This document shows positions 8,878 through 51,248 of a stretch of DNA of 64,000 nt, in pieces. The translations under genes were made by a program, and so were the position numbers. Origin of the DNA: Candidatus Rokuibacteriota bacterium (lineage in GTDB: Bacteria > Methylomirabilota > Methylomirabilia > Rokubacteriales > CSP1-6); the NCBI GenBank assembly GCA_016209385.1, contig JACQWB010000265.1, forward strand, positions 13,977 to 77,976, written 5' to 3'. The notes below the pieces were generated by a model, which did not search any database, was not told the origin of the DNA, and worked only from the letters and a program-made list of their open reading frames with translations. Positions within the stretch are counted from its first letter, which is position 1; every line of letters starts with the position of its first letter.

Positions 8878-8880
8878 GAG

Positions 8881-25438: not shown

Positions 25439-25999
25439 TTAGCCGAGAATCGTCTCTACCGTCAGGCTGACGTCGCGGAAGGCTTCCAGGGAGATCGTTT
25501 CGCCGCGCGGGATCCGCCGGAAGTTTCGGTAGCCATCCGGCGTCGGGTCTCTATACTCTTCGACAGTTTCGGTTGAAAGGTCAACGAGCCACGCGTTGGG
25601 AATCCCCGCGCGAGCATACAGGGGAATCTTCACGGTTCGGTCAAACTCCACTGAGGTGTCCGCCACTTCGACCACAAGCCACACGTCCTCCGGTCCCGGG
25701 TGCGCCTGGGCATAGAAGTCAGGCCGGGGTCGAAGCAGGGCGAGGTCGGGCTGGGGTTCAGAGTGGAGACCAAGACCCAGAGGGCTTTGGACGGACACCG
25801 TGATCCGTTGACCGAGAAGCGAGTTGAACAGGTGACCCAGACGCCGTACGCACGCGGCATGGCGGGCGCCGATAGGGGTCATCTCAATTATCTCCCCTTC
25901 GATGAGCTCCACGCGATCATCTTCGGAGAAGACACCCGCCTGGCCCATCCGATGGTACTCCTCGACACTGAACCGGCGCCTGAGAAGCTGAACGTCCAT
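25439..25999 (-). CDS. Uma2-family (DUF820) putative restriction-endonuclease-like protein
   Basis: MDVQLLRRRFSVEEYHRMGQAGVF...RVELIEGEIIEM...PDLAL...VWLVVEV is the Uma2 signature. ATG at 25999 carries a purine-rich RBS; an alternative ATG lies at 26023. The track ORF is extended to 26095. Confidence 0.7.
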   Translation of the reverse strand: MDVQLLRRRFSVEEYHRMGQAGVFSEDDRVELIEGEIIEMTPIGARHAACVRRLGHLFNSLLGQRITVSVQSPLGLGLHSEPQPDLALLRPRPDFYAQAHPGPEDVWLVVEVADTSVEFDRTVKIPLYARAGIPNAWLVDLSTETVEEYRDPTPDGYRNFRRIPRGETISLEAFRDVSLTVETILG

Positions 26000-26091
26000 C
26001 GCCTTTTTCCTTGCTCCGACCATATGACGGAAAGAGAGGGTCGTCAAGTGTATCGGATCTGCTGCGCTCCAAGTTCTGTGGCTGACAGCAA

Positions 26092-26592
26092 TCATCCACC
26101 TTGTGGGCGGGCTAGGCGCTGGCGGACCAGCGCGGGGAGGTAGCCCGGGTCGGCAGCCGCGTCGGCTTTCGACACGAACTCGACGCCGGCGTGCCGGAGC
26201 TCCGGAGCCGGCGGCGCGTCACCCGTCACCACCATCACCGGCACGTCCCGGAGTCCCGACTCCTTGGCCATGGCTCCGATCAGATCCATTCCCGACCGGA
26301 GCGATCCCCCTTCCGGAACGCGGAGCCAGAGGTCCACGATCACGAGGGCGGGCCGGAGACGTCGGATCCCCTCGAGCCCGTCGTCGGCGGTGTCGCTCGA
26401 GGCGGTGCGGAAGCCCCCGCGCTGGAGAAAGAGCTGGAAGCAGCGGGCCAGCTCGGGATCGTCATCGATCACCAAGACCAACGGCGCGCCGTCCGGACCC
26501 TGTGGATCCCAGGGTCCCTGAGTCAGTTGCGACCCCTCACCATCGCGGTCCCTCACCCGTCGCGTGTCGCCCGGTCGTGAACCCGTCCTCAA
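26092..26592 (-). CDS. Single-domain response-regulator receiver (CheY-like), paralog of 28417..28872
   Basis: PLVLVIDDDPELARCFQLFLQRGGFRTASS...PALVIVDLWLR...VPVMVVTGD is the receiver fold, with an acidic pocket DDD and a phospho-acceptor D in IVDL. Confidence 0.65.
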   Translation of the reverse strand: MRTGSRPGDTRRVRDRDGEGSQLTQGPWDPQGPDGAPLVLVIDDDPELARCFQLFLQRGGFRTASSDTADDGLEGIRRLRPALVIVDLWLRVPEGGSLRSGMDLIGAMAKESGLRDVPVMVVTGDAPPAPELRHAGVEFVSKADAAADPGYLPALVRQRLARPQGG

Positions 26593-26648: not shown

Positions 26649-26677
26649 ATGCCCCGGCGAAGGGCATGAGATACAAT
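26649..26677 (+). promoter_or_regulatory. Candidate promoter/operator for the MNT-HEPN pair: palindrome ATGCCC-N7-GGGCAT, then a TACAAT -10-like hexamer
   Basis: atgccccggcgaagggcat at 26649..26667, and tacaat at 26672..26677, 14 nt before the ATG at 26691. Confidence 0.3.
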
Positions 26678-26690
26678 GCGGGGCAGCGCA

Positions 26691-27185
26691 ATGAGCCTTC
26701 TGCAAAGGTACGAGGATCTGCTGGAGCAGCTCTTGGTGGAAGTCACGGCCACCTACGGGCCCAGGCTGGTCGCGTGCGCCGTGTTCGGCTCCGTGGGGCG
26801 CGGCACGCCACGCGGCGACTCGGACATTGACCTCCTCCTCGTGGTGCGGGGCCTGCCGCGGGGCCGGCTCAAACGCGTGGAGGAGTTCCTGGTGGTCGAG
26901 AGCCGCCTCGATCCGGCGCTGAAGCCCGCGGAGCCCGGAGGCGCCCCGATTGGGCTCTCGCCCGTCTTCAAAACCCCCGAGGAGGTGGAAGCCGGCAGCC
27001 CACTGTTTCTCGACATGGTCGAGGACGCGAGGATCCTGTACGACCCCGAGGGCTTCTTGGCCGCGCATCTGGACCTGCTCCGTATCCGGCTTCGCGAGCT
27101 TGGCGCCCGACGGGTCCGCTCGGGGAACGCCTGGTACTGGGACCTCAAGCCGGACCTCAAGCCCGGCGAGGTGTTTACGCTGTGA
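26691..27185 (+). CDS. MNT-type minimal nucleotidyltransferase (antitoxin-like partner of HEPN)
   Basis: FGSVGRGTPRGDSDIDLLLVV is the GS-x9-DxD polymerase-beta nucleotidyltransferase motif. Start at the second in-frame ATG (26691; track 26676). Confidence 0.7.
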   Translation: MSLLQRYEDLLEQLLVEVTATYGPRLVACAVFGSVGRGTPRGDSDIDLLLVVRGLPRGRLKRVEEFLVVESRLDPALKPAEPGGAPIGLSPVFKTPEEVEAGSPLFLDMVEDARILYDPEGFLAAHLDLLRIRLRELGARRVRSGNAWYWDLKPDLKPGEVFTL

Positions 27186-27592
27186 CGAACCAGAGCCTCG
27201 CCCGGAGCTACCTGGTCAAAGCCCAGAAGCGACTCAAAGCCCTCGCGGTCCTTCGGGACGAGGGGGCGTACTCGGACGTCATCCGCGAGGCCCAGGAGCT
27301 GGTTGAGCTGGCCCTGAAGGGAATGCTTCGGGCGGCGGGCATCGAGCCGCCGAAGTTTCACGACGTCGGAGGACTGCTCCTCGAGCACGCGCGGAAGTTC
27401 TCCCAGGCGGCGCGTGAGCAGCTGCCCCGAACGCGCGTATCAGGATGCGGCGTGGGTGGTCACCCTCGCCAGCGAGGTGATCGAACCGAGGCAAGTCGGG
27501 ACTTGACAGCTCTGTTCCTGTCCCCTCCTGCCTACCGCGAGGGCCAGGTGGCCAGCCAGCGAACCCTAGGAAACCTTGGATGCACCGCCTGA
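27182..27592 (+). CDS. HEPN-domain protein (toxin-like partner of MNT). The C-terminal third may be frameshifted.
   Basis: ATGA overlap with the MNT gene. The helical N-terminal 85 aa (ARSYLVKAQKRLKALAVLRDEGAYSDVIREAQELVELALKGMLRAAGIEPPKFHDVGGLLLEH) are HEPN-like. The tail after REQLP is Gly/Arg-rich and overlaps the convergent PIN gene by 61 nt. Confidence 0.55.
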   Translation: MTNQSLARSYLVKAQKRLKALAVLRDEGAYSDVIREAQELVELALKGMLRAAGIEPPKFHDVGGLLLEHARKFSQAAREQLPRTRVSGCGVGGHPRQRGDRTEASRDLTALFLSPPAYREGQVASQRTLGNLGCTA

Positions 27593-27975
27593 TAGAACGG
27601 TTCATCCGCAGTAACCAAGTCCGCGTCCGTCGCAACGCTGAGGGCAAGGAAGAGCGCATCGTAGATGCTCTGCTGGTGCTCCAGGCCCAGGCGGTACGCC
27701 ATGGCAAGAAGGGGTAGACTCGGGACGATTTCGAACGGGATGGAGGCGAATGCCGAGAGAACGGCGGCTCCGTCCTCTGGATCAAGCCCCTCAAACATCA
27801 CGCGCTTCCAGACCACATTGGCGAACTCCGGATAGACGAGGTCTGGCCCCAGGGGGTGGTAGATGCCTGTCTGGAAGAGTTGACGGAGCCGGAGCGCTTG
27901 GTCCGAATAGGGTTCATCGAAGAACCACTTCACCGCCACGCTCGTGTCAACCGCCACACGTTGGACCGTGCTCAT
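27532..27975 (-). CDS. vapC: PIN-domain toxin VapC
   Basis: VAVDTSVAVKWFFDE carries the first acidic D of the PIN fold, with conserved D/E further on. 4-nt overlap with the upstream antitoxin. Confidence 0.75.
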   Translation of the reverse strand: MSTVQRVAVDTSVAVKWFFDEPYSDQALRLRQLFQTGIYHPLGPDLVYPEFANVVWKRVMFEGLDPEDGAAVLSAFASIPFEIVPSLPLLAMAYRLGLEHQQSIYDALFLALSVATDADLVTADEPFYQAVHPRFPRVRWLATWPSR

Positions 27976-28214
27976 CGCTGTCGGTCTTCCCGGAGGAGGG
28001 GAGCGCTGTCCTTAAACGTGCCGTACCCGGCTCGCAGTCGTTCCCTGAGGGTATCGACCATTTCCCACGCTGCCTGTGGGCCTTCGGGCCTTCCGAGAAC
28101 CTGTTCGAGGATCACCGCCGCTTCCTGGGTCACCGAGCGCCGGTTTCGCCTAGCACGCTTCTTTAGCCTTTGGTAGATCACTGCCGGAAGTGTCCGAATA
28201 TAAAGGGTCGCCAT
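27972..28214 (-). CDS. vapB: RHH (FitA/VapB-like) antitoxin
   Basis: MATLYIRTLPAVIYQRLKKRARRNRRSVTQEAAVILEQ matches the FitA-type plasmid-stability antitoxin N-terminus. GGAGGGG SD. Confidence 0.7.
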   Translation of the reverse strand: MATLYIRTLPAVIYQRLKKRARRNRRSVTQEAAVILEQVLGRPEGPQAAWEMVDTLRERLRAGYGTFKDSAPLLREDRQR

Positions 28215-28416: not shown

Positions 28417-28872
28417 TCACCCGCCAGCCTCGGCCCGCCGATCAGCCGGCGGCGACGCCAGTCGGCGTCGGACCAGATCGGGGAGGCGTGTTGGGTCGGC
28501 CGCGGCGGCGGCCTTCGCGACGAACTGAACCGCGCGGTCCCCGAACTGGTCGGGCTCCGGGACGTCGCCCGTCATGACGATCACGCGCAGGTCTCGGAGC
28601 GCTGGGTCCTCGCCGAGCGCCCGGATCAGGTCGGCCCCGGACTGGAGCGCCGCTCCCTCCCGGCTGCGGAGCCACAGGTCCACGATCGCGAGCGCCGGCC
28701 TGAGCGTCCGGATCCCGTCGAGGCCATCCGAGGCGGTCTCGGCGGACGCGGTCCGGAAGCCGCCCCGCTGGAGGAAGAGCTGGAAGCAGCGGGCCAGGTC
28801 CGCATCGTCCTCGACTAGGAAGACGAGCGGGGCACTCTCCGGGCCCTGGGCGATCCAGCGCGTCTGACTCAC
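28417..28872 (-). CDS. Single-domain response-regulator receiver (CheY-like), paralog of 26092..26592, translationally coupled to the lasso-cluster nucleotidyltransferase
   Basis: PLVFLVEDDADLARCFQLFLQRGGFRTASAETASDGLDGIRTLRPALAIVDLWLR. GTG start with a GGAGG SD 7 nt upstream, 13 nt after the stop of the upstream gene. The track ORF is extended to 28941. Confidence 0.65.
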   Translation of the reverse strand: MSQTRWIAQGPESAPLVFLVEDDADLARCFQLFLQRGGFRTASAETASDGLDGIRTLRPALAIVDLWLRSREGAALQSGADLIRALGEDPALRDLRVIVMTGDVPEPDQFGDRAVQFVAKAAAAADPTRLPDLVRRRLASPPADRRAEAGG

Positions 28873-28885
28873 GCGGCGACCTCCG

Positions 28886-30076
28886 TCAGCCGGGGTCTCC
28901 GGCCGCGCGGCGCCCGGGCGGGAGCAGCAGCGTCGTGGCACCCTTCGCGGCCTCCCGACCGAAGCCGCACACGCGGCGGGCGTACGCTGCGCCGAGCTGC
29001 CGTCTGCGGGTGAGCCCGTACTGCAGCAGCATGAATTCGGGCGACGGCGCGAGCAGGGCGAGCGCGTAACGGAGCTTCGCGCGGAGCCCCTTGAGGGCGA
29101 ACAGCATGCCCAGGCTCTCCACCCCGTCCACGCGCGACCCCTGGGCCAGCAGGCGAAGCAGCCGGCCCTCGAGCGATCGCGGACGTTCCAGCCTCAACCG
29201 ATCGAGGAGCGGATCCGGCATCGGCGTGGCAAAGAGTGCCCTCACCGTTCCCAGGACGCGCCCGAGAAGAAACTCGAGCCGCGTCTGGTGAGCGAGCGAC
29301 AGAAACCACGACCAGTCAACGAGGGCCGCCTCCCTGCGCAGGAGCTGATCGATCTCATAATACCAGAGCAGCGGGGCGGTCCCGTCCCGATGGGTCAGGT
29401 GAAGACAGAGGTGGAAGAGCAGCTCGTCCGCGGGGAGCACCCGGGTCTGGAGGCCGACAACCTGCCCTCCCAGGCACCGCGCCAAGAGCTGGTCCGTCTC
29501 CAGCCGGTCCACGAATGGCGGGTAGGTCAGCGTCCAGTGGGGCTCGACGATGATCCAGCCGTGACGGTCTTTGAAGAACTTGAGGGTGTAGGAGAAGGCC
29601 CGGGCGAAGCCCGGCCGGCGGTCCATCTCCGCAAATCCCAGGCTTCGGAGAAGCCCGCCCACGTCCGCCAGGTCCGCCTTCCTCACGAGGAGATCGATGT
29701 CCCCCATGGGGCGGGCCGTGATGTCGCCGTAGAGCCGCTCCGCCAGGGCCAGGCCCCGCAGCGGCGCGCACGCCAGCTTGCGCTCGTCGAAGGCCCTGAG
29801 GATGCTCGCCAGCTCGTCAGCCAGGATCAGGTTCCGGGCGGCAGAGCCGGCGGCCTGCGCTTCGAGCCGCTCCGCGAGCCCAGCCGGAAGCTGCCCGCCG
29901 ATCTCGGATCCCCTGAGCCGACGGTGGAGGAGCGGGGTGAATCCGTGCGTGGCTGCGTCGCTGACGATCGCTTCCCAGTCTGCCGGGGTCGGTGCGGGGA
30001 GCGTCGCGGGATCAGCGCCGCGAAGCAGTCCCATCAGGAAGGGGTGGACCATCAAGGCAGCCTCCGAAGCCCTCAT
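28886..30076 (-). CDS. PF14907-type nucleotidyltransferase-family protein, of the kind that often accompanies lasso-peptide clusters
   Basis: GDIDLLVRKADLADVGGLLRSLGF is a nucleotidyltransferase hG[GS]/DxD-like motif. 396 aa. 4-nt overlap with the upstream ABC gene. Confidence 0.65.
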   Translation of the reverse strand: MRASEAALMVHPFLMGLLRGADPATLPAPTPADWEAIVSDAATHGFTPLLHRRLRGSEIGGQLPAGLAERLEAQAAGSAARNLILADELASILRAFDERKLACAPLRGLALAERLYGDITARPMGDIDLLVRKADLADVGGLLRSLGFAEMDRRPGFARAFSYTLKFFKDRHGWIIVEPHWTLTYPPFVDRLETDQLLARCLGGQVVGLQTRVLPADELLFHLCLHLTHRDGTAPLLWYYEIDQLLRREAALVDWSWFLSLAHQTRLEFLLGRVLGTVRALFATPMPDPLLDRLRLERPRSLEGRLLRLLAQGSRVDGVESLGMLFALKGLRAKLRYALALLAPSPEFMLLQYGLTRRRQLGAAYARRVCGFGREAAKGATTLLLPPGRRAAGDPG

Positions 30077-31917
30077 CGCCGAACCTGCCCGGCGCCAGGG
30101 ACGCGCGACCGCTGGGGCCCGCAGTCTTCCCCGTGTTCACGCTCGGCGCCTTGCGCCTGCCACAGGGCGCGAAACCGCCCGCGCTCCCGCGCGATCAGAA
30201 TCCCCCAGGTTCCTGACTCCGCGAGGCGCCCGTCCTCGATCACGTAGATGATGTCGGCCTCCCGTACCGCGGAGAGCCGGTGGCTGATGACCACCAGTGT
30301 CAGCCTGCCGCGAAGGTTCCCCATCGCCTGTCGGATGCGTCGCTCGTTCTCAGAGTCCAGCGCGCTGACCGCTTCGTCCAGGATCAGGAGGCACGGCTTC
30401 CGGAGCAGCGCCCGGGCCAGGGCCAGACGCTGCCGTTCGCCCCCCGAGAGGAGCACGCCCCGATCGCCGACCATCGTGTCCAGTCCCTTCGGCAGTCTCG
30501 CCACGAACTCCTCGGCCGCTGCCAGGCTCAACGCCTCCCGGACCTCATCATCCGTCGCGCCTGGCGCCGCCCAGAGCAGGTTAGCGCGGACCGTGTCGTG
30601 GAAGAGAAAGGTCTCCTGGGTGACATAACCGATGCGGTCCCGCCAGGCTCCCACCCGCTCGGGAGTCAGCGGCACGCCGTCAACCAGCACGCGCCCGTCA
30701 TCGGGCGTGACCAGCCCGATGATCAGGTCGGCGATCGTGCTCTTGCCGCTCCCGGACGGGCCCACGATCGCGGTCGTCCGGCCGGCAGGAATACTCAGCT
30801 CGAGCTCGCGAATGACCGGGAGGCCGTCGTAGGCGAAGGAGACCCGATCCAGCCTGATGGCTGAGTTCAGCTCGACCGACTCGGCTCTGCGGGACCGGGG
30901 TTCCACCGCAGCCTCGCAGCGCCGCTGCATCTCCACGATCGACGCGAACGCCGGCAGCAGATTCACGAAGCTCTGATAGCTCTGCTGCACGCTGGCGAAC
31001 TTGGGCATCAGCCGTCCGAAGAGGAAGAGGAACAGGAGCAGCTCGGCGGCCGACAGGGCGAGCAGCTCGAGGGCCACGTACAGGATCGCGCTCAGGAGGC
31101 CCACCGAGCCGACCTCGAACCAGTACCTGACGTCAGCCTGGTTGCGGACGGCCCGCAGGTACATGTCCCGCACCCGCGCGCTGAGCCGCGCAAACAGCTC
31201 GGCGTGACGCTCCTCGGCCCCATAGCTCTTCGCGATCTTCATGCCGCCGAGATGCTCCGTCACGGCCGCGTACAAGTGGTTCGTCGCCTCGGAGAGCCCC
31301 TCGCCCGCCACGTGGGCCACCCGAGTCCGGCCCCTGAGCCCGACCATCAGCGCGACACCGCTGGCACAGATGACCGCTGTCATCATAAGCGAGAGCCTCA
31401 TCGCGAACCCGACATAGACAAGGACGACCACGGCGCTCGCCACCGAATGCAGCAGGCAGTGCGTCGCCCCGCCGACCCGTTCCACCTCGGCGGTCAGGAC
31501 ATGGGTGAAGTCCGCCGAGCGGCTCCGCGAAAAGAAGGGCCAGCTCGTATTAGCGATCGCCCGATAGAGCCGTGTCCGCAACGACGCCACAAACCCGTGC
31601 TCCACGCCGAGGCTGACGGTCGTCTGCCAGCGGGCCAGGAGCCCGTACAGGTTGACGATCAGCGCATAGGCGCCGAGCACGGCCACCAGGGTCGGGCCCA
31701 CGCCGGCCGCCGCAAAGATCGAGGAGACGAAGCGGGCGATCGCGCTCACGCCGCCCTGCTGAACATCCAGGCCGACGAGCTGGAGCAGCGGCACGAGCAT
31801 GAGGACCCCGATCCCTTCGGTCAGCCCCAGGCCGAGCATCAACCCGAGGGCCAGCGCGACCTTCCATCGCATCACGCCGACCAGGGTTGCCAGGTAGGAG
31901 CGGAAAGACTGGCGCAT
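30073..31917 (-). CDS. Fused TMD-NBD ABC exporter (lasso-peptide D protein, McjD-like)
   Basis: Walker A GPSGSGKST. ABC signature LSGGERQRLALARALL. Walker B LLILDEAVSALD. Six-helix N-terminal TMD. Confidence 0.85.
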   Translation of the reverse strand: MRQSFRSYLATLVGVMRWKVALALGLMLGLGLTEGIGVLMLVPLLQLVGLDVQQGGVSAIARFVSSIFAAAGVGPTLVAVLGAYALIVNLYGLLARWQTTVSLGVEHGFVASLRTRLYRAIANTSWPFFSRSRSADFTHVLTAEVERVGGATHCLLHSVASAVVVLVYVGFAMRLSLMMTAVICASGVALMVGLRGRTRVAHVAGEGLSEATNHLYAAVTEHLGGMKIAKSYGAEERHAELFARLSARVRDMYLRAVRNQADVRYWFEVGSVGLLSAILYVALELLALSAAELLLFLFLFGRLMPKFASVQQSYQSFVNLLPAFASIVEMQRRCEAAVEPRSRRAESVELNSAIRLDRVSFAYDGLPVIRELELSIPAGRTTAIVGPSGSGKSTIADLIIGLVTPDDGRVLVDGVPLTPERVGAWRDRIGYVTQETFLFHDTVRANLLWAAPGATDDEVREALSLAAAEEFVARLPKGLDTMVGDRGVLLSGGERQRLALARALLRKPCLLILDEAVSALDSENERRIRQAMGNLRGRLTLVVISHRLSAVREADIIYVIEDGRLAESGTWGILIARERGRFRALWQAQGAEREHGEDCGPQRSRVPGAGQVRR

Positions 31918-31918: not shown

Positions 31919-32881
31919 TCAGAAGCGGCGGAGGTCCGACTCGAGCGCCGCGCGGACGGCCGGCAGCCGCGCGAGATCTCGCGGGAAGGCGAGGAGCCTG
32001 ACGGGAATCCGGGCGACGAGCCGCGCCGTCAGGTCGAACTGACGTGCGAGCCGTTCCGGTTCAACAATCACGGCGTTGAAGGTGTTCTTCAGCAGCGCGA
32101 GAAAGGCCTGGCGCGGAGCGAGCGGCCGGATCGTCACCCTTGCGCGTCGCGTATTCTGCGCCGGCGGCGTCAACACGTAGATCGCCTTCAGGGGCGCGGC
32201 GCCCAGCCAGGACATCTTCCACGCGAGCCGGATAACGAGTTTGGGCGTGAGGGGATTCATCGGGGTGCCCACGACCCCATCGCCGAACACGCGTTTGGCA
32301 ACCTCGGGAAAGAGCTTGATCCGTGGCGGGCCAGGCCACGCCCGGAAGCTGTGGCCGTTTTCTTCCACCACCAGGAGGTCGTCGGTCAGCAACGAATGCC
32401 CGGCCTGGAGAAAGGCCGCCCCAAGGCTCGACTTCCCGTAGCCGCAGTCGCCGACGAAGGCCACGGCCTTCCCGTCGACGACCACGACAGTCGCGTGGAG
32501 GGAATCGATGCCCTGCTTCAGGAGGGCGAACGAGAGGACCTGACCCAGCAGGTAGGTCTGAAACGCCTCGACGCTCCCGCCGTCGAGCGACCGGCCGGCG
32601 ATTCTACGCCCATCGGCCGAGATCACGAACTCGAACAGGCCCGACCATCGCAAATAACACGAGCCGTCGTCGAGCGACGCGTACCTGAACCAGGAAACGT
32701 CGTTCCGCTCGCCGCCGATCGTGCGATGGACTCGAGGGAAGAGCGATGCCGGTGCGCGGACCACCTCGGCGTCCACGCGGCCGCACCCGGCTACGCGACG
32801 ACACGGGAGCGGGATCACGCTCCGGACACTTAGCCCGTACGCCTGGTAGGCATACCGGCGTCTGGATCTCGACCGTGGCAC
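31919..32881 (-). CDS. HPr-kinase/phosphorylase-related kinase, a lasso-peptide tailoring kinase candidate
   Basis: P-loop VGDCGYGKSSLGAAFLQAGHSLLTDD matches the HprK C-terminal-domain Walker A. GTG start with an AGGAGG SD 5 nt upstream, immediately after the precursor ORF stop. Confidence 0.7.
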   Translation of the reverse strand: MPRSRSRRRYAYQAYGLSVRSVIPLPCRRVAGCGRVDAEVVRAPASLFPRVHRTIGGERNDVSWFRYASLDDGSCYLRWSGLFEFVISADGRRIAGRSLDGGSVEAFQTYLLGQVLSFALLKQGIDSLHATVVVVDGKAVAFVGDCGYGKSSLGAAFLQAGHSLLTDDLLVVEENGHSFRAWPGPPRIKLFPEVAKRVFGDGVVGTPMNPLTPKLVIRLAWKMSWLGAAPLKAIYVLTPPAQNTRRARVTIRPLAPRQAFLALLKNTFNAVIVEPERLARQFDLTARLVARIPVRLLAFPRDLARLPAVRAALESDLRRF

Positions 32882-32894: not shown

Positions 32895-33044
32895 TTAACC
32901 TGTACCGGCCCTCGTCTTCGGGCCGGCCACGTTCGCCTCGCTCCTGTTCTTGGCCCCGCCCCTCGTGAGCGTTCGCAAGTCGCCGTAGCAGCGGAGTCGG
33001 GGCGGGGTGTACGGCTTTTTGGCCGGGCGGTTTAGCTTATTCAT
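32895..33044 (-). CDS. Candidate lasso-peptide precursor (A peptide), 49 aa, absent from the six-frame track
   Basis: Translation: MNKLNRPAKKPYTPPRLRCYGDLRTLTRGGAKNRSEANVAGPKTRAGTG*. The leader contains Y-T-P-P-R-L-R-C-Y-G (YxxPxLxxxG) and Thr at -2 (LTR|G). The core starts with Gly and has Glu8 as ring acceptor. GGGGGAG SD 8 nt upstream. It lies in the 164-bp gap between the cyclase and kinase genes. Confidence 0.6.
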   Translation of the reverse strand: MNKLNRPAKKPYTPPRLRCYGDLRTLTRGGAKNRSEANVAGPKTRAGTG

Positions 33045-33045: not shown

Positions 33046-34923
33046 TCAACATCTCCCCCAGAATTTCTCGAGCCAGCGGTCCACGCTCACCAAGAACCAC
33101 ACCTCCCATCGAAGCTCCCTCTCCCCCCGGAGATAGCGGGTCACCAGCTCGTGCGCTCGCTCCAGGTCCACGTAGCGCCCCATCCGTCCCGAGCGATCCT
33201 CGAGCGGGGCGGGCGGATCACGGCGACAGAGAGCGGTCAGGTTTCGATCCATCGGATCGGTCCAGTCTCCCTTCCCCTGTCTCGACCGGATCGTGTCAGG
33301 CACGATCCCCTGCATCGATCGTCGCAAGATCCATTTTCGCTCGCCATCGCGCGTCCTCCGCTCCCAGGGGATCGAGAGGACGAACTCCACGAGCCGACTG
33401 TCCAGGAACGGATATCTGAGCTCCATGCCCCACCGGGCCACAGCCCGTTCGTCCACCTCGACCTTCAGGACATAGTAGGCCCCGGTCACGGAGACGTGTG
33501 TGTCAGCCTGGACGCAGGACGGGAACGGCAGCCGAACGCGCGGCTCGCGGATGCGCTCCCGCAGCCCGACCTCGCGGGCCAGGTGCGGGCGGATCCAGCT
33601 CGGTGGGGCGCGGCGGGCCGCCCGCTTGCCCCAGTACTTGAGCCGGGACGGGAGAAGGCTGGCGAGCGCCAGCTGGGCAAACTCCCACGGCTGGCCGCCG
33701 TACCAGCGGGCCAGCTCGCCGGTCTCGCGGATGAACCGTCCGGGCTTCAGCGTGCGCAGCAGATCGGCCAGGTAACCGATCTCGTCCAGGAGCTGGTCTC
33801 CACCGTCACCCGACAGGAGTACCCGGCACCCCCAGGCGTCAACCGACTCCAGCGAGGCGAGGCCGCTCTGGCGGTTCGCCGCGACGATCGGGCTCTCGAC
33901 CGACCAGAGGAGATCGTCAAGCCGGTAGAGCGGGTCGTCGTCCGACGCGTGGATCTCGTGCACCTTGACACCCGAGGCCCGGCCCACCGCCCGGACGTAC
34001 CGCCGCTCGTCAGAATCCGGGTGATCTGAAAAGAGCGTGAAGGCGTCCAGCGAGGGGGAGACCGCCCCGCCGTCGGCGAAGACCCGCGCGGCGGTACAGA
34101 CGATCGCCGACGAGTCCAGACCGCCGCTCACGAAGGCGCCGATCGGGAAGTCGCTGCGCGTGCGACACCTCACAGCCTCCGTGAAAAGGGAGCGGAAGTG
34201 CTCGGCGTATTCCTCGTCGCGGGCGTACCGGGTCTCCCGTGGCGGATCGACGGCCCAGTAACGCTCGATCCAAAGGCGTCCCTCCTCGAGCACGAGGAGG
34301 TGGCCGGGCGGGAGCCGATGGATTCCGCGGAAGAAGGTCCGCGCGTGATCCCCCTCCCGGAACTCCCTGAGCAAAAAGGCCAGGATCATCTCGTCGTCAG
34401 GTTCCGGCATCCGGTCAAGAACGGCGAGAATGGGCTTCGTCTCCGAGCTGATCAGCAGGGTGACGCCGTCCCACGTGTAGTGAAGCGGTTTGAGCCCGAG
34501 CCGGTCTCTCGCACAGAGAAGCCTCCCCCTTCGGCCATCCCAGAGCGCGAACGCAAACTCCCCGATGATTCTTCCCAGGGCGCCCGCTCCCCACTGCCTG
34601 TACGCCTCCAGCGTCAGCTCAGGATCGGTCTGACCCGAAAGCGGACGTCGCTCCGCCTTCAGGGCTGCGATCAGTTCCTCCCGGTTGTCGAGCCGGCCAT
34701 CCCAGACCAGCCGGCACGTGCCCTGGGAGTCAACCACTGGCTGCTCCTCGTGGAGAGACTCCGGGGTCGTGTAGAGGAGCCGATGAGCCAGCCCGACTGG
34801 CCCGCTCACCCACCGGCCCTCGCCATCGGGGCCCCGATGGGCCATGGCCCCCGACATCCGCTCCAGGAGACTCGGATCCACGGCCAGTCCGTAAGCGTGA
34901 CAGATCCCCACAAGCCCGCTCAT
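33046..34923 (-). CDS. Asparagine-synthetase-like lasso cyclase (C protein), copy 2
   Basis: Class-II amidotransferase and AsnB synthetase domains (SGGLDSS PP-loop). The N-terminus is MSGLVGICH: the nucleophilic Cys2 of true AsnB (compare MCGIAG at 48164) is replaced by Ser, as expected for lasso cyclases. Confidence 0.8.
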   Translation of the reverse strand: MSGLVGICHAYGLAVDPSLLERMSGAMAHRGPDGEGRWVSGPVGLAHRLLYTTPESLHEEQPVVDSQGTCRLVWDGRLDNREELIAALKAERRPLSGQTDPELTLEAYRQWGAGALGRIIGEFAFALWDGRRGRLLCARDRLGLKPLHYTWDGVTLLISSETKPILAVLDRMPEPDDEMILAFLLREFREGDHARTFFRGIHRLPPGHLLVLEEGRLWIERYWAVDPPRETRYARDEEYAEHFRSLFTEAVRCRTRSDFPIGAFVSGGLDSSAIVCTAARVFADGGAVSPSLDAFTLFSDHPDSDERRYVRAVGRASGVKVHEIHASDDDPLYRLDDLLWSVESPIVAANRQSGLASLESVDAWGCRVLLSGDGGDQLLDEIGYLADLLRTLKPGRFIRETGELARWYGGQPWEFAQLALASLLPSRLKYWGKRAARRAPPSWIRPHLAREVGLRERIREPRVRLPFPSCVQADTHVSVTGAYYVLKVEVDERAVARWGMELRYPFLDSRLVEFVLSIPWERRTRDGERKWILRRSMQGIVPDTIRSRQGKGDWTDPMDRNLTALCRRDPPAPLEDRSGRMGRYVDLERAHELVTRYLRGERELRWEVWFLVSVDRWLEKFWGRC

Positions 34924-36815
34924 GACTTACCTCTTCGTTCTGAGTTCCACTCGGGAAACCACTGCCGGAGCCACACCTCCAGCCTTGCGAAATTCCACAA
35001 GAGGTTCCGATGTCGCCCCTGCGTCCACACGTAGCGCTCCCGGAGCCGTTCGGCTTCCCGGCGGCTGACGTAGCGAAAGACCCGCCCGTCGGAACCGAAC
35101 AGGTCGCGCTCCAGCCGCTTCGCCTCCAGCTCAGTGGGCAGCCGGCCATTCATCACTGGGACGAACTGCGCGACCTCTTCGCGTTGCCTCACCGGCGCGA
35201 TGGCCGCCAGCGCGCGCTGGACGAACTGCTTTCGATAGCCGGGTGCCAGCGTCACGGCCGACGGCACGGCGAGGAAGAATTCCACCAGCCGTCGGTCCAG
35301 GTACGGGTGGCGGCACTCCAGCGAGAAGGCTGAGACCATCCCGTCCATCTGGTTCAGCGCGAGCGCCATCGCCGGTCGCGTGAGCGCGCGGTAGGTGGTT
35401 TCCTGGCACAGCGTCGGGAATCTCCGCCGCTCCCTCGGCATCGTCCACCGGTCCAGCCCGACCCGCGTGGCAAACTCGGCGTCGATCCAGCGGGGGAGCT
35501 GGCGCTTCACCCCAGCCCTGAAGAGCCGGCGGAGTCCAGGCGGAAATTGATCCCAGACGAGCGCCAGGACGGTCCGCCCGGAGCCAGTTCCGCCGTAGGC
35601 CGTCGAGCTGAGCCGGGCATGCCGGACCAGCGTTCCGAGCTGGAGCGAATGGAGAAGGTCCGCAAGATACCCCGCCTCGGCACGCTGGCTCAACTCGTCC
35701 GCTCCAAACCCTGTCAGCAGGACCCGGCAGCCCCGCGCCGCCGCCGGCCCGACGAGCGCCGGAATCGTGAGGGCAGGATCGTGGTGAGGGGTCTCGGCGC
35801 AGTCGAGGAAGAGCTCGAACAACGTGATCGGCCCGTCCGCTCCCTCAGGACGAACGAAGTGGACCTCGGTGCCGTATCTCCTGGCCAGGTGCTGGATCGC
35901 GTCCCACTCCTCCTGCAGGAACCCTTCGGCCAGCAGGGTGAACGCCGCCAGTTCGGGAACGCCCACATCCGCCAGCCGGAGCGTCTCTGCCGTCGCAGTG
36001 ACTAACGTCGAGTCGATTCCTCCGCTGAGCAGCAGTCCCACCGGCGAGCAGCTCCGGAGACGGCAGCGCACCGCCTCGCGGAAGAGCGCTGCGAACGCCT
36101 CGAGATAGTCCTCTTCCTTCGCGTACCGGGCCTGACGCGACGGATCCACGTCCCAGTAGCGCTCGATCGAGAGACCTGAGTCTGCCAGGCGAAGGACGTG
36201 GCCCGGTCTCAACTGCTTGATCCCCTCAAAGAAGGTCGCCTCGGGGTCGCGAAAGCCCATCAGGAGGTAATCGGCGATCATCGCCTCGTTTGGCCGCCTG
36301 GCGATCGCCGGATCGGCGAACAGCGCCTTCACCTCCGAGCCAAAGAGGAGCCGCTGGCCGGCCCAGTGGTAGTAGAAGGGTTTGACCCCGATCGGGTCTC
36401 GCGCGCACACGAGCTCCCGCCGTCTGCCGTCCCAGAGCGCGAACGCGAACTCGCCGACGATCCGCCTCACGCAGCCCGCGCCCCACTGCCCGTAGGCCTC
36501 CAGAACCAGCTCAGGATCGGTCAATCCTTCCTGATCGTGTCGGTCGATCTTCAGCGCCGCGATCAGCTCCTCACGGTTGTCGACCCGCCCATCCCAGGCG
36601 AGCTGGCAGGTCCCGTGAGCGTCCGCCAGCGGCTGCTTCTCGTGGAGCGACTCCGGGGTGGTGTGGAGCATCCGATGGCCCAGCCCGACCGGCCCTGCCA
36701 CCCACTGGCCCTCGCCGTCCGGGCCGCGATGCGCGAGGATGTCGGTCATGCGCTGGAGGAGCGCCGGGTCGGCCGGGCGCCCACCGCTGTGACAGATTCC
36801 GGCAATCGCGCTCAT
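34920..36815 (-). CDS. Asparagine-synthetase-like lasso cyclase (C protein), copy 1
   Basis: MSAIAGICH N-terminus (Cys2 replaced by Ser). SGGIDST PP-loop. 631 aa. ATGA overlap with copy 2. Confidence 0.8.
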   Translation of the reverse strand: MSAIAGICHSGGRPADPALLQRMTDILAHRGPDGEGQWVAGPVGLGHRMLHTTPESLHEKQPLADAHGTCQLAWDGRVDNREELIAALKIDRHDQEGLTDPELVLEAYGQWGAGCVRRIVGEFAFALWDGRRRELVCARDPIGVKPFYYHWAGQRLLFGSEVKALFADPAIARRPNEAMIADYLLMGFRDPEATFFEGIKQLRPGHVLRLADSGLSIERYWDVDPSRQARYAKEEDYLEAFAALFREAVRCRLRSCSPVGLLLSGGIDSTLVTATAETLRLADVGVPELAAFTLLAEGFLQEEWDAIQHLARRYGTEVHFVRPEGADGPITLFELFLDCAETPHHDPALTIPALVGPAAARGCRVLLTGFGADELSQRAEAGYLADLLHSLQLGTLVRHARLSSTAYGGTGSGRTVLALVWDQFPPGLRRLFRAGVKRQLPRWIDAEFATRVGLDRWTMPRERRRFPTLCQETTYRALTRPAMALALNQMDGMVSAFSLECRHPYLDRRLVEFFLAVPSAVTLAPGYRKQFVQRALAAIAPVRQREEVAQFVPVMNGRLPTELEAKRLERDLFGSDGRVFRYVSRREAERLRERYVWTQGRHRNLLWNFARLEVWLRQWFPEWNSERRGKS

Positions 36816-36824: not shown

Positions 36825-37268
36825 TCACCGCGAATGGAACAGCGGCTCATATCGCCCGGCCTCCTGACCGCCGAGGATCGGCTCGCCGGCGTAATCGAGC
36901 CAGGCGTGTGCCCTGAGCTTCCCCTCCTCGCGCGACACGCCGATCCGCAAGGCTGTCGGGATGCCCCACCGCCCGAGGAGCCACGAGAGGACGAGCGCCT
37001 TTTTCAGGCAGGTGGGGTTGACCGGCGCGTACCGGCCGGCAACCTCCACGAGCCAGACCACGCGAGCCAGGGATGCGGGGCGGCCCGAGGCCGGGGTCGC
37101 ACCCGTCGTGCGGGAGAGCTTCCGGTGGAGCCCCAGCAGCCGCTTGAAGCTCAGGACTCTCAGCGCCAGCTCCACGAGGAGAAAGAGCCCCCAGGCCTCG
37201 GCGAGGATGGCCCGCTCGCCGGGAGGGAGCCGGAATAAATTCCGCAGCCGCTCACTCAACGATTTCAA
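36825..37268 (-). CDS. Lasso-peptide B2 protein (transglutaminase-like cysteine protease)
   Basis: CLKKALVLSWLLGRWGIPTALRIGV...LRAHAWL carries the conserved Cys...His catalytic pair of the McjB C-terminal domain. 147 aa. Confidence 0.75.
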   Translation of the reverse strand: MKSLSERLRNLFRLPPGERAILAEAWGLFLLVELALRVLSFKRLLGLHRKLSRTTGATPASGRPASLARVVWLVEVAGRYAPVNPTCLKKALVLSWLLGRWGIPTALRIGVSREEGKLRAHAWLDYAGEPILGGQEAGRYEPLFHSR

Positions 37269-37551
37269 CTAAGTCGTTCTCCCGCAGTCGCGTGATGAAC
37301 TGGAGCAGATCGTCCGTGCAGCGTGGCTCCGCGACCGCGTACTCCTCCAGGAGCGCGTCACGCACCGCGCGCAGCGAGGCGTGCTCCCGGACGAGTTGCC
37401 AGATCCGCGTACCGGCCGGATCCAGGCCGAAGTAGACGCCGGTCTCGAGATTGAGGATGACGATCTCGCCCCCCAGATCGTGAAAGACGACGTCGTCTCG
37501 GATCCGGACTCGAGATGCGAGCGACAGTTCTCTCGCCAGCGCGGCACTCAT
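37252..37551 (-). CDS. Lasso-peptide B1 protein (PqqD-like RRE leader-recognition domain)
   Basis: MSAALARELSLASRVRIRDDVVFHDLGGEIVILNLETGVYFGLDPAGTRIWQLV is a PqqD-family fold. 99 aa. The start codon overlaps the stop of the upstream WecA-like gene. The track shows this only as the tail of a longer ORF. Confidence 0.7.
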   Translation of the reverse strand: MSAALARELSLASRVRIRDDVVFHDLGGEIVILNLETGVYFGLDPAGTRIWQLVREHASLRAVRDALLEEYAVAEPRCTDDLLQFITRLRENDLVEIVE

Positions 37552-38702
37552 CACAATAGCCTCCCCTTTCGCTCCAGGATCGTGAGGATCAGGAAGATGC
37601 TGAGGGCCTGGCAGAGCAGCAGGAAGGCGGAGAGCGCGGACGCCATCAGGAGGACCGTCGCCCCCACGCTGAGGCAGATGCTCAGCGCGTAGATCAACAG
37701 CACCGCGTGCTCTCGCCGCCCCAAGAGGTGCTCCATGCGGTGGTGGAGGTGGTCCCGCCCCACGTACTCGATCCATCCCCGGACGCCCTTCACCTTCCCC
37801 GAGACCACGCGATCCACGGTGATGTAGATCATGTCGTAGATGAACACGCCAAAGATGAGAATCGGCGCGGCCAGGTCCACGATCGTGTTCTCGGCCCACT
37901 CTCCCATCACGGCCAGCGACGCCAGCACGAACCCCAGGAAATTGGCCCCGGCGTCTCCCAGGAAGATCGTGGCGCGATCGCCCGGACGGAAATTGTAGGG
38001 GAGGAACCCGAGGGTGCTCCCGAGCAGAGCCGCCGCGACCCATCCGAGGAACACCTGCTGGCTCTGGTAGGCGATGATCCCCAGGAAGAAGGCGGCGATG
38101 GCGGCCAGGCCGGGAGCCAGGCCGTCCATCCCGTCCAGGAAGTTCATGGCGTTGGTGAGCCCCACGATCCAGAGGATGGTCAGGAAGATATTCAGCGCCT
38201 GCCCCCAGAGGGCACGGGTCGGAAACAGCGTCAGCGAGATCCCCGAGGCGATGACGATCCCTGTCGCGAGCAGCATGATGGCCAGCTTGAAGACAGCAGG
38301 GAGCGGGCGGACGTCGTCGACGCGGCTGATACAGATCACCAGTGTCCCGCCGGTCAGCAACCCCCAGAGGGCCGGCGTCAGGATCGAGTTCGCCAGCAGG
38401 CTGATCAGGAAGGCGAGATAGATCGCGACCCCGCCCAGCAGCGGAATCGGCTCGCCGTGGAGCTTCCGCGAATCCGGCCGGTCAACGATCCCCATCGCCA
38501 GCGCGAAGGCTCGAACCGGCCTGACCAAGAGGAAGGAGAGGAGGAACGAGAACAGGACGATGTAGAGCCACCTCAACCCTTCCTGGAAGAAGAAGCTCTT
38601 CACCGGGAAAAGGAAGAGCAGGAGCAACACGACGACGCCCAGGAGATACAGGAGCTGCCCCGCCGGGAGGGAGATCGTCGAGACACGAATGGCGGATCTC
38701 AC
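37551..38702 (-). CDS. WecA/MraY-family (GT4 polyprenyl-phosphate HexNAc-1-phosphate) initiating transferase
   Basis: Ten or more TM helices. Cytoplasmic loop motifs DDVxxL-like (ISRVDDVRPL) and NxxNxxDGxDGL (NAMNFLDGMDGLA). Confidence 0.8.
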   Translation of the reverse strand: MRSAIRVSTISLPAGQLLYLLGVVVLLLLFLFPVKSFFFQEGLRWLYIVLFSFLLSFLLVRPVRAFALAMGIVDRPDSRKLHGEPIPLLGGVAIYLAFLISLLANSILTPALWGLLTGGTLVICISRVDDVRPLPAVFKLAIMLLATGIVIASGISLTLFPTRALWGQALNIFLTILWIVGLTNAMNFLDGMDGLAPGLAAIAAFFLGIIAYQSQQVFLGWVAAALLGSTLGFLPYNFRPGDRATIFLGDAGANFLGFVLASLAVMGEWAENTIVDLAAPILIFGVFIYDMIYITVDRVVSGKVKGVRGWIEYVGRDHLHHRMEHLLGRREHAVLLIYALSICLSVGATVLLMASALSAFLLLCQALSIFLILTILERKGRLL

Positions 38703-39766
38703 CGGAAGCTCTCGAGCGCGGCTGCCACGACGCGCTCGATCTCCGCGTCCGTGAGGGAGGGATAGAGGGGAAGGGAGACAGCCTTCTCCCAGGCTTCTTC
38801 AGCGCCGGGAAATCCTCCCAGGCCGAGATACCAGTGAAGCGGTCGAAACACCGGTTGCCGCGCCTCCACGCCGCAGGTCTGAAGCCGGGCGAGGTAGTGG
38901 TCCGCGTCCCATGGCCCCTTGACCACGTAGCGGTAGTAGATCCGCGCTCGATCCTGAGGCGCGGCGGGAGGCTTCAGGTTCAGCGCGTGAAGCTGCTCGG
39001 CATAGAAGGACGCGATCGCCTCCCGCCGCTTGAGGAACTCGGGCAGCCGCTCGAGCTGAGCGAGCCCCAGGGCGGCCTGAAGGTCGGTCAGCTTGTAGTT
39101 GAAGCGCGGTCGGTCAGCGTCCTTTTGGTCGTACGCTCTGAGATCCCGCGCCATCGCCAAGATCCGCTCGTCGTTCGAGAGGAGCATCCCGCCTTCCCCG
39201 GTGGTGATGACCTTTGTGGCATAGAAGGAGAAGACCGAGGCTTCCCCGATACTTCCCACCGGCTCTCCCCGGTAGAACGCCCCCAGAGCATGCGCCGCCG
39301 CCTCGATGACGGGGAGCCCCAACGCCTTCAGCTCATCGAGGTCGGCGGGCAGGCCGAAGGAGTGGACCACGATCAGCGCCTTGGCCCTGGCCGAGCGCGC
39401 CTTGCGCGCCGCCGCCGGGTCTATGTTGAAGCTCTCGGGATCCGAGTCGACGAGGCGCGGGGCCGCCCGGACAGCTCTGACAGCGTGGAGCAGGGCCGAG
39501 CACGCGTAGGTTGGAAGGAGGACCTCGTCCCCGTCGCCGATGTTCAGCGCGAGCAGCGCGAGGTGAAGGGCTGCCGTCCCCGAGCTGCAGGCCACCGCGC
39601 CGCGAACCCCGACCAGCCGCGCCACCTCCCGCTCGAACGCGGCGACGCGGGCCCCCTGAGCGATGGAGCCGGACCTGACCACCTGGGCGAGGGCGTGAGC
39701 CTCGGCCTCGCCCAATGTGGGCCGCGAGTGAGAGATGGGAGCCCGTGTTGGCACGTCAGTCACCAT
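38699..39766 (-). CDS. DegT/DnrJ/EryC1/StrS-family PLP-dependent sugar aminotransferase
   Basis: AGAKPVFVD-like blocks ...GDEVLLPTYACSALLHAV..., SFYATKVITTGEGGMLLSND (PLP-lysine region), LRAYDQ. The ATG at 39766 gives a 355-aa product. The track ORF has a 100-aa Pro/Arg-rich false extension. Confidence 0.8.
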   Translation of the reverse strand: MVTDVPTRAPISHSRPTLGEAEAHALAQVVRSGSIAQGARVAAFEREVARLVGVRGAVACSSGTAALHLALLALNIGDGDEVLLPTYACSALLHAVRAVRAAPRLVDSDPESFNIDPAAARKARSARAKALIVVHSFGLPADLDELKALGLPVIEAAAHALGAFYRGEPVGSIGEASVFSFYATKVITTGEGGMLLSNDERILAMARDLRAYDQKDADRPRFNYKLTDLQAALGLAQLERLPEFLKRREAIASFYAEQLHALNLKPPAAPQDRARIYYRYVVKGPWDADHYLARLQTCGVEARQPVFRPLHWYLGLGGFPGAEEAWEKAVSLPLYPSLTDAEIERVVAAALESFR

Positions 39767-40373
39767 TGAGGAAGAGGCGCAAGGGCACGAAGCCCTCCGC
39801 GTTGCGGACCCTCCCCTGGATCCCGCGGAAGTGGGCGGCCGCCCGGGCCAGATCCAGGATGATGAGGCCCTCGACGCCCGTCTTCGCGACCTGGGAGGCA
39901 TGGGCGCCCAGGGCCGCCAGCTTCTGCTCCAGCACAGCGTCGATATCGACGAAGACCGAGGGGGTGAAGTTGGCCGTGGTCGGGCCTTCGTAGAGCAGGA
40001 CGTTGCGCGCATACCGGGAGGCCGTGACGACCGAGGTGGAGAGGTGCCGGTGGTCCTGATGGGTATCGTCACCGAAGTGCGCGAAGATCAGGTCCGGCTT
40101 GACGCGGTGAAGGAACCCCTCCACCTTCTGGATGAGGTCGCGATCCAGGGCGACCTCGGTGTCCGCGTAGCCGCCCCAGAAGATCTCCTGAGCTCCGAGC
40201 AGCTTCGCGGCCGCCTCCTGCTCCCGCCGTCGCTCCATCGCGTCCCCTCCCTGTGCGCCGTCCGTGAGGACCAGGAGGTGGACATCATGACCCTTCAGCG
40301 CGTACTTGATGAGAGCCCCACCGCAGCCGAACTCGATGTCATCCGGATGGGCACCGATCGCGAGGATGTTCAA
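39756..40373 (-). CDS. PIG-L/LmbE-family N-acetylglucosaminyl deacetylase
   Basis: NILAIGAHPDDIEFGCGGALIKY is the PIG-L HPDDE motif. A TTG start at 40373 is preferred, with an AAGGGAGGGGAG SD 6 nt upstream. A start at the upstream in-frame ATG (40490) would overlap the WbqC gene by about 120 nt. The track ORF is extended further, to 40565. Confidence 0.6.
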   Translation of the reverse strand: MNILAIGAHPDDIEFGCGGALIKYALKGHDVHLLVLTDGAQGGDAMERRREQEAAAKLLGAQEIFWGGYADTEVALDRDLIQKVEGFLHRVKPDLIFAHFGDDTHQDHRHLSTSVVTASRYARNVLLYEGPTTANFTPSVFVDIDAVLEQKLAALGAHASQVAKTGVEGLIILDLARAAAHFRGIQGRVRNAEGFVPLRLFLNGD

Positions 40374-41065
40374 CCGACTCCCCTCCCTTGCCTGAGAACA
40401 GAAAGACTCTGCGAACCGCAGTTGAACAACAGGTCCACGACAGAAAGGTTCGGCTCGAAGGGCCCGAATCGCTGGGGATACGCCGGACATCGAAAGTCCT
40501 GGAAGGCGAGCCGGATCCCCGCGTCGGCGAAGCGCTGGCGGTCCAGGTAGTCCAGCCCCCCGCATCCGGAGAGATAGGTGTCCCCCCCGAGAGCCTGACA
40601 GATCGCGATCAGCCGCTCGGTCTTCCCCTCCGCTTCACGAAGCGCCAGGGAAGAAGCCGGGACCAGCTTCGTCTGGATCCCGAGCGCGTCGACCAGATAC
40701 CCGAGGGTCTCGAGGGCCAGATCGATGAGCTGCGCCCACTGCCGGGAATAGACCTCCTCGAAGAACGCCCGGTGGGTTTCGAAGAACGGGGCGGCTGCGT
40801 AATTCAGGACCAGCGCCTGGAGGTGCTTCCGCGACCAGCGTGCGCGGTTGTTCACCCCGACCTCGGAAATCGCCTGGGGGAAGCGATGAAGGACGGGCAC
40901 GGTGAGCCACTGCCAGCCGGCGGCTGTCTTGATCCGGTTCCGGTTCTGCCACTCGTTCTTCTTGAACTGGACATGGTCGAGGAGCACGAAGCAGTCGGCT
41001 CGATCCATCTTGTCGAAGTAGCCCAGCCAGGGCAGGTACTGGGGCTGGTGCACCGCCACCTTCAT
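40370..41065 (-). CDS. WbqC-family protein (O-antigen-cluster protein of unknown function)
   Basis: MKVAVHQPQYLPWLGYFDKMDRADCFVLLDHVQFKKNEWQNRNRI is the characteristic WbqC N-terminus. Confidence 0.7.
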   Translation of the reverse strand: MKVAVHQPQYLPWLGYFDKMDRADCFVLLDHVQFKKNEWQNRNRIKTAAGWQWLTVPVLHRFPQAISEVGVNNRARWSRKHLQALVLNYAAAPFFETHRAFFEEVYSRQWAQLIDLALETLGYLVDALGIQTKLVPASSLALREAEGKTERLIAICQALGGDTYLSGCGGLDYLDRQRFADAGIRLAFQDFRCPAYPQRFGPFEPNLSVVDLLFNCGSQSLSVLRQGRGVG

Positions 41066-43742: not shown

Positions 43743-43951
43743 CGAGAGATCCTCGGAGGGGGGCTCCGCCCCCCTTCCGAACCTCCCCCAGAGGTTGCGC
43801 GGGCCAAGCCCGCGCTCGGAGCGCTTCGGCCGTGTCCAGGTGGACGATTGGAGCATTCGAGTGGAGCTTTCCAGCACCCTGCTCTAGTCCCTCTGGCTAT
43901 CGCCGGGCTGCCCGTATCGGGGCGCGTAGCAGCCGAGCGTCGTGATAGGGA

Positions 43952-50544: not shown

Positions 50545-50549
50545 ATGCC

Positions 50550-51242: not shown

Positions 51243-51248
51243 GCTCGT

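Follow-up and report, generated by a model that had tools for sequence, protein, structure and literature searches.

A probable lasso peptide precursor gene between tandem cyclases and an HprK-like kinase in a Candidatus Rokuibacteriota genome, with an internal Thr as candidate phosphorylation site

A stretch of 64,000 nucleotides (hereafter the window) from a metagenome-assembled genome (MAG) of Candidatus Rokuibacteriota (contig JACQWB010000265.1) carries a complete lasso peptide cluster on its minus strand, in the order B1, B2, C1, C2, A, K, D, N. We examined the smallest of these genes, A, an open reading frame (ORF) of 49 codons that fills the 164-nt gap between the C2 cyclase and the kinase K. 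An initial annotation, made from the sequence alone, had proposed this ORF as a lasso precursor, and translation and coordinates bear out its position: window:32895-33044(-) reads MNKLNRPAKKPYTPPRLRCYGDLRTLTRGGAKNRSEANVAGPKTRAGTG, followed by a stop codon. The ATG stands 1 nt past the TGA stop of C2 (33046-33048), with GGGGGAG 8 nt to its 5' side, and the TAA stop is followed by TC-AGGAGG-CCGG-GTG, which ends in the start codon of the kinase ORF at 32881. The Shine-Dalgarno sequence of the kinase begins 2 nt past the precursor stop and, contrary to the earlier description, does not strictly overlap it. The features of the precursor are as follows.

32895-33044, minus strand: lasso precursor gene A, 49 codons plus stop, with leader codons 1-28 at 33044-32961 and core codons 29-49 at 32960-32898.
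32937-32939, minus strand: codon GAG for core Glu8, the one acidic residue of the core and the predicted isopeptide acceptor for the Gly1 amine.
32913-32915, minus strand: ACG codon of core Thr16, within G-P-K-T-R, the predicted phospho-acceptor.

The 49-aa product divides into a 28-aa leader, MNKLNRPAKKPYTPPRLRCYGDLRTLTR, and a 21-aa core, GGAKNRSEANVAGPKTRAGTG. The leader contains the motif YxxPxLx3Gx5Tx between Y12 and R28 (YTPPRLRCYGDLRTLTR), placing a Thr at position -2; with a leader of 28 aa this is Thr27, not Thr26 as first numbered. When all six reading frames of the window were translated, the strict pattern Y..P.L...G.....T. was found exactly once, compared with 0.025 occurrences expected from 200 simulations of the window under a first-order Markov model, so that the leader motif recognized in the initial annotation is upheld. 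No other plausible leader was found in the window, since the two other matches to a relaxed pattern, at 51556(+) and 22958(+), show neither a start nor a core nor any gene context. The leader model NF033521 (lasso_leader_L3) matches residues 12-30 with 18.0 bits (E 2e-3). The core begins with the small residue Gly1, has an acid (Glu8) within positions 7-9 as is usual for class II lasso cores, and contains no Cys. Because Glu8 is the sole acid in the core, Gly1-Glu8 is the only macrolactam that could form; the cleavage site, ring and threaded topology are predictions, for which the monoisotopic masses would be 1998.04 Da for the linear core, 1980.02 Da for the lasso, 2059.99 Da with HPO3, and 2222.04 Da with HPO3 and a hexose.

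The genes surrounding the precursor are those of a class II lasso cluster, with a PqqD-like protein, a lasso-type B2 and two cyclases of the NF033535 type directly upstream of the precursor, to which a kinase and a nucleotidyltransferase are added as tailoring genes; clusters of this kind are already known.

37252-37551, minus strand: B1, PqqD-like leader recognition protein of 99 aa from the ATG at 37551 (PqqD E 9e-17; lasso_PqqD_Bac).
36825-37268, minus strand: B2, transglutaminase-like leader peptidase of 147 aa (Transglut_core3 E 4e-22; NF033537 lasso_biosyn_B2 90 bits, cut-off 33).
34920-36815, minus strand: C1, Asn-synthase-type lasso cyclase paralogue of 631 aa with an SGGIDS PP-loop (NF033535 458 bits).
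33046-34923, minus strand: C2, lasso cyclase of 625 aa with an Asn-synthase fold and an SGGLDS PP-loop (NF033535 455 bits).
31919-32881, minus strand: K, HprK-like peptide kinase of 320 aa with a GTG start (Hpr_kinase_C E 8e-6; HprK_rel_A and ScmC matches).
30073-31917, minus strand: D, ATP-binding cassette (ABC) exporter of 614 aa (ABC_membrane and ABC_tran).
28886-30076, minus strand: N, PsmN-type nucleotidyltransferase (NTP_transf_5) of 396 aa (PF14907 E 9e-49).

N contains a G-D-I-D metal motif at residues 125-128 and lies directly after K in most related loci, and the D homologue of a related locus (L015) is 62% identical to that of the window. B2 is the only protease encoded in the cluster. 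Tailoring genes vary among related loci. Two NTP_transf_5 homologues (5373-6317 and 8875-10038; 27% and 55% identical to the window N) flank the ABC exporter in L015, and a further variant is seen in L097 (7047-7901) and L098 (2354-3214), where an S-adenosylmethionine-dependent methyltransferase gene lies between cyclase and precursor and the adjacent kinase is labelled PF27840 "ScmC".

To judge how widely the precursor is conserved, we used both the peptide and the kinase as queries. A protein search with the 49-aa sequence returned five close homologues with 59-80% amino acid identity, all in cyclase-precursor-kinase order, and the ORF is thus conserved in syntenic clusters. The ratio of nonsynonymous to synonymous substitution rates (dN/dS) was 0.07-0.44 for seven of nine close homologues, with dS near or past saturation, and in the remaining two dS was too saturated for an estimate; the precursor ORF is under purifying selection. 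Kinase homologues numbered at least 1,531 at E values up to 1e-5. Through the kinase we obtained 3 genome loci with a single-sequence query and 80 metagenome loci with an alignment query, and 94 loci in all were scanned for leader-like small ORFs. Such an ORF was present just upstream of the kinase in 76 of the 94 loci. These ORFs encode 62 different peptides and usually lie 3-120 nt away from the kinase gene. Among the 18 loci in which no precursor was found upstream, 10 have less than 200 nt of sequence upstream of the kinase match, and 7 have 290-9,000 nt in which none was found; in L091 the precursor lies elsewhere in the locus. The first Asp or Glu falls at index 14 after the leader Gly, which is core position 8, in 44 of the 62 family members, in agreement with the 28-aa leader, 21-aa core and Gly1-Glu8 ring originally proposed for the window peptide. 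In five loci (L044 and L047, whose precursors contain LTMLIQPPAVKGGAKSDGG, and L018, L022 and L054), 2-6 additional residues separate the leader Thr from a KGG...D ring segment, and in these either the cleavage site or the ring size departs from the canonical T(-2) rule.

A profile built from 25 of the kinase-adjacent peptides retrieved 454 proteins, and 4 among the matches listed (two from Rokubacteria, one from Planctomycetes and one from Anaerolineae) bear the NCBI name "lasso RiPP family leader peptide-containing protein". NF033521 was matched by 23 of 25 relatives at E values up to 0.1, the best being 1.2e-5. This model, which names close relatives in MAGs of Rokubacteria, Planctomycetes and Anaerolineae, covers the leader only and is silent on any motif in the core. 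When the search was started from the precursor, the kinase was found immediately downstream in two of three cases.

The kinase contains the His...GxxGxGKS...DD arrangement of HprK-like kinases. Residues H129, G144, G147, G149-K150-S151 and D167-D168 are invariant in 24 kinase homologues, and their spacing is identical to that of H148-G163-G166-G168-K169-S170-D186-D187 in BsfK of Bradymonas sediminis, in which this H/G/G/GKS/DD motif has been tested by mutation (PMC10368454). Sequence matches to HprK models are weak (E 8e-6 for Pfam, and 2.8e-5 to PDB 3tqf with a family profile), and an AF2 model of the kinase (predicted local distance difference test score 87.6) gave as its best matches the HprK/P structures 3tqf and 1kkl and relatives with the PEPCK fold. 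Using the catalytic-core segments given in the supplement of PMC10368454, we found that across the catalytic core the window kinase shares 37-50% identity with each of the characterised lasso kinases, with 37% for BsfK and 50% for both SyanK and BaceK. Prediction of regiospecificity from similarity was therefore rejected, because these values do not discriminate among the known enzymes.

The same set of genes is found in the pseudomycoidin cluster of Bacillus pseudomycoides (psmCAKB1B2ND), which has a split B1/B2, a cyclase, an HprK-like kinase with a DD metal site, a PsmN of the NTP_transf_5 type and an ABC exporter, and in which the precursor adjoins the kinase, as in the window, and the kinase acts on the linear precursor. 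PsmK acts on a C-terminal Ser, and hexosylation of the phosphate depends on PsmN (PMC6993621). The PsmN-like gene that characterises this subtype is present in the window cluster. The two systems differ in that the terminal Ser of PsmA carries the phosphate and hexoses whereas the window core ends in Gly, in that PsmA combines an Ala1-Glu9 ring and an acidic tail with a leader of Firmicute type that lacks YxxPxL, where the window peptide has Gly1-Glu8 and YxxPxL, and in that the window locus has two cyclases, unlike the psm cluster. In the paeninodin/ThcoA and SyanA/SyanK systems (Zhu et al. 2016), according to two reviews, a kinase homologous to HprK with a His-Lys-Asp-Asp set modifies the precursor before cleavage and cyclisation (PMC8498205, PMC9266682). 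PadeK, ThcoK and SyanK are described in reviews as acting on a strictly conserved C-terminal Ser, the acceptor in these phosphorylated and polyphosphorylated lasso peptides, which is absent from the window peptide. All six kinase-linked precursors in the compilation of Duan et al. also end in Ser.

The initial annotation had accordingly taken phosphorylation of a C-terminal Ser as the rule for lasso kinases, a premise that is now outdated, since BsfK phosphorylates the internal Ser3 of BsfA, which ends in Asp (PMC10368454, 2023). BsfK requires the leader and is stimulated by B1, and its cluster contains both K and N genes (PMC10368454). The Bsf cluster is made up of A, B1, B2, C, D, K and N, and BsfA likewise has a YxxPxL leader, a ring from Gly1 to an acid at position 8 and no C-terminal Ser. 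The Bsf acceptor Ser3 lies inside the ring, whereas position 3 of the window core is Ala, and at -2 of the leader BsfA has Ile where the window peptide has Thr27, outside the Ile/Val expected at this position for the Bsf type.

If neither of these known acceptors is available in the window peptide, the phosphate would have to go elsewhere, and we examined the family for a conserved hydroxyl. Not one of the 62 precursors adjacent to a kinase has a C-terminal Ser (the terminal residue is Gly in 18, Ala in 17, Val in 11 and others in the rest), and among 121 distinct profile hits there are only 5 that have it. In contrast, 59 of the 62 carry an [ST][KR] pair beyond the ring acid, while shuffling of the residues after the ring gave a mean of 19.7 and a maximum of 31 in 2,000 shuffles. 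The pair lies 4-11 residues past the ring acid, with Pro two residues before the Ser or Thr in 43 cases, so that the usual form is P-x-[S/T]-[K/R], and it is followed by an unconserved tail of 0-18 residues, mostly 1-7. The pair was also present in 121 of 121 distinct profile hits, although the profile itself contains the motif. Among 45 characterised lasso precursors, only 4 have [ST][KR] within the last 13 residues. Ser or Thr occurs at ring positions with a frequency of at most 11%, with 8% at position 3, except for position 5, where it reaches 42%. The initial annotation had named Thr16, Thr20 and Ser7 as candidate acceptors; in the nearest relatives the equivalent of Ser7 is N, D or L and that of Thr20 is S, G or P, so that these two vary freely and only Thr16, in P-x-[S/T]-[K/R], is conserved. 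As the only conserved hydroxyl it is the best candidate acceptor, and from this conservation we consider it somewhat better than an even bet that Thr16 is the residue phosphorylated. The family-wide lack of a terminal Ser, together with the precedent of BsfK, indicates that the Gly terminus is not an anomaly of the window locus, and the puzzle of a kinase beside a precursor with no terminal Ser is largely settled by that precedent and by the family-wide Thr/Ser.

A pathway can be proposed from these comparisons. B1 would bind the leader through Y12-x-x-P15-x-L17, and K would phosphorylate the linear precursor, most likely at core Thr16 in P-x-[S/T]-[K/R]; N may then decorate the phosphate on Thr16, by analogy with the PsmN-dependent hexoses on phospho-Ser. 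B2 would cut after Arg28, guided by Thr27 at -2, and C2, with or without C1, would join the Gly1 amine to the side chain of Glu8 to give an 8-residue ring threaded by a 13-residue tail, after which the ABC transporter D would export the product. The choice of acceptor, the order of the steps and the decoration by N are the parts that we infer.

We place the probability that the ORF is the genuine lasso precursor of its cluster, with a Gly1-Glu8 ring, at roughly 0.85. An ORF in GC-rich DNA might be open by chance, with the true precursor elsewhere or absent; the NCBI pipeline did not call it, its leader score is 1 bit under the cut-off, and many spurious ORFs overlap this GC-rich region. Against this stand the position of the motif, so rarely expected in a window of this composition and yet lying exactly in the cyclase-kinase gap, a dN/dS well below 1, the 62 distinct syntenic homologues and 454 profile hits, and the lack of an alternative leader in the window, including the rest of the cluster, where a better candidate might have been sought. 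Together these effectively refute a chance frame. If the precursor is real, its kinase might act on Ser7, Thr20 or the leader Thr25, or trimming of the tail might expose a Ser or Thr as a new C-terminus, which would restore the classical C-terminal-Ser logic. PadeK, ThcoK, SyanK and PsmK all require a C-terminal Ser, the choice of site differs from lineage to lineage as BsfK shows, and in 24 of the 59 family members with the pair a single residue follows the [K/R], so that the Ser or Thr is third from the C-terminus. These points keep such a site in view, but Ser7 and Thr20 are not conserved in the closest homologues, the cluster encodes no protease that could trim the tail other than B2, and the stretch following the motif, 0-18 residues in length, is unconserved; we regard this as an unlikely outcome.

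It is less likely still that K and N leave the peptide alone, serving instead in immunity, in regulation or on another substrate, while the motif is kept as a plug or as the target epitope of an unmodified lasso. The Gly-rich tails contain hardly any bulky residues besides Lys and Arg, which makes Lys15 and Arg17 natural plug candidates, and in one Planctomycetes locus the motif occurs with no kinase next to it. However, the HprK-like kinases of lasso clusters that have been characterised all phosphorylate the precursor, the catalytic residues of the kinase are invariant, and the spacing of 3-120 nt between precursor and kinase persists even among clades whose cyclases share only about 33% identity. 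Several observations nevertheless weigh against a lasso precursor phosphorylated at Thr16. The window peptide scores slightly below the NF033521 cut-off (18.0 against 19 bits). Three family members (L024, L025 and L029) carry P-M-T-M-V, with no basic residue, and a fourth (L061) has no motif, and all four keep the kinase. The third of the searches started from the precursor led to a Planctomycetes contig on which a cyclase lies with a precursor that carries the motif, and the 1.4 kb remaining before the contig ends contain no kinase. The conserved [S/T][K/R] could serve folding, plugging or target binding instead of phosphorylation. Since the loci were selected by way of the kinase, and the motif is itself part of the profile, neither sample is an independent test of the link between the two, and the similar identity of the window kinase to the C-terminal-Ser kinases and to BsfK means that homology does not predict its choice of site.

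The most unusual feature of the locus is its pair of cyclases. C1 and C2 are full-length paralogues, 43% identical, that serve the single precursor found in the window; both begin with MS- rather than MC- (MSG instead of MCG in C2) and keep the SGGxDS PP-loop. Tandem cyclases are also present in a second Rokubacteria MAG (L011, 4088-7836) and in a soil contig (L003, 10-3442). In L015 (2098-4055) only a 28-residue remnant of the C-terminus of C1 precedes a C2 that, at 71% identity, is the closest to the window C2 among loci with the complete gene, which suggests that C1 was lost there. A neighbour-joining tree places C1 and C2 in sister clades, apart from a large clade of single cyclases, and the three are distinguished by TG[FV]GADE in C1, SG[DE]GGDQ in C2 and TGHW[GA]DQ in the single-cyclase clade. 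Between the window and L011, C1 (57% identity) and C2 (59%) are about equally conserved. C1 retains its PP-loop and G-x-D-[EQ] motif and is thus probably functional. The position that we take to correspond to Glu348 of AsnB varies by clade (F/V, D/E or H), and no conclusion on degeneracy of C1 is drawn from it. We found no report of paired lasso cyclases, and no match to sequence strings of the family, in the searchable literature, which leaves out supplements and subscription papers and so gives weak evidence of novelty.

An aromatic residue (F, W or Y) follows the ring in only 4 of the 62 family members, which leaves Lys15, Arg17 and whatever group Thr16 may carry as the only bulky features that could keep the tail within the ring, in keeping with the speculation of the pseudomycoidin study on locking of the fold. 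A more speculative idea, which we consider doubtful, is that the kinase, with N, builds a steric plug after translation, in which a phosphate, possibly with a sugar or nucleotide, on the Ser or Thr of P-x-[S/T]-[K/R], beside the Lys or Arg, would lock the Gly-rich tail, and that in the Gly1/Glu8 subclade the two co-conserved cyclases would cooperate, as a heteromer or with one as a folding partner.

Other genes near the cluster were also considered. A polysaccharide-biosynthesis cluster at 37551-52484 (-) abuts the lasso cluster and contains a WecA-like GT4, a DegT aminotransferase, a PIG-L deacetylase, WbqC, a 488-aa ORF at 41062-42528, GT1 and GT2 glycosyltransferases, a flippase and a genuine AsnB-type asparagine synthase (46296-48191) with the N-terminus MCGIAG. 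In L095, another Rokubacteria MAG, and in L021 the lasso cluster has these same neighbours. The upstream GT4 and DegT genes were rejected as tailoring genes, as they belong to this 15-kb polysaccharide cluster and, at 62-75%, surpass the lasso genes in conservation across the single-cyclase loci L021, L023 and L040; the neighbourhood looks like a conserved genomic position, not a set of tailoring genes. In a Planctomycetes MAG (L094, 6063-8174; JACQVV010000199.1), a cyclase and an NCBI-annotated P-x-T-R precursor lie beside a gene for a 2323-aa protein and a polysaccharide exporter, with no B1, B2 or kinase visible before the contig end, and this cluster may be fragmented or reduced. On the other side of the window cluster, two genes for receiver-domain proteins (26092-26592 and 28417-28941, both minus strand; sharing 59% identity) lie on either side of a small toxin-antitoxin island made up of an MNT/HEPN pair at 26676-27592 (+) and a FitA-like/PIN pair at 27532-28214 (-), and a Uma2 endonuclease gene at 25439-26095 adjoins this region. 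The layout suggests duplication or insertion, and the downstream response regulator was rejected as a cluster member because it has no counterpart in related loci.

The public annotation of the MAG has no gene at the precursor locus. The kinase is MBI4611278 and the cyclases are MBI4611279 and MBI4611280, and since these numbers are consecutive the precursor was not called by NCBI. An identical 49-aa product has been called in two Logan assemblies. The shortfall of 1 bit against NF033521 is the likely reason why the gene was never called, and many relatives are probably missing from annotation for the same reason. The immediate value of the finding is therefore practical, in that a real gene is absent from the public MAG annotation.

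The family to which this gene belongs is large and uncharacterised, and the kinase homologues come mostly from soil and groundwater metagenomes; the named members are from MAGs of Rokubacteria/Methylomirabilales, Acidobacteriota, Anaerolineae and Planctomycetes, lineages in which cultured representatives are few or absent. The pseudomycoidin study speculated that appended groups could lock the lasso fold (PMC6993621), and this family would be well suited for testing that proposal for phospho-glycosyl groups. If Thr16 and its equivalents do prove to be the acceptors, phosphorylation in the interior of the tail would be a third regiochemistry of lasso phosphorylation, beside the two known, at the C-terminal Ser and at Ser3 of the ring.

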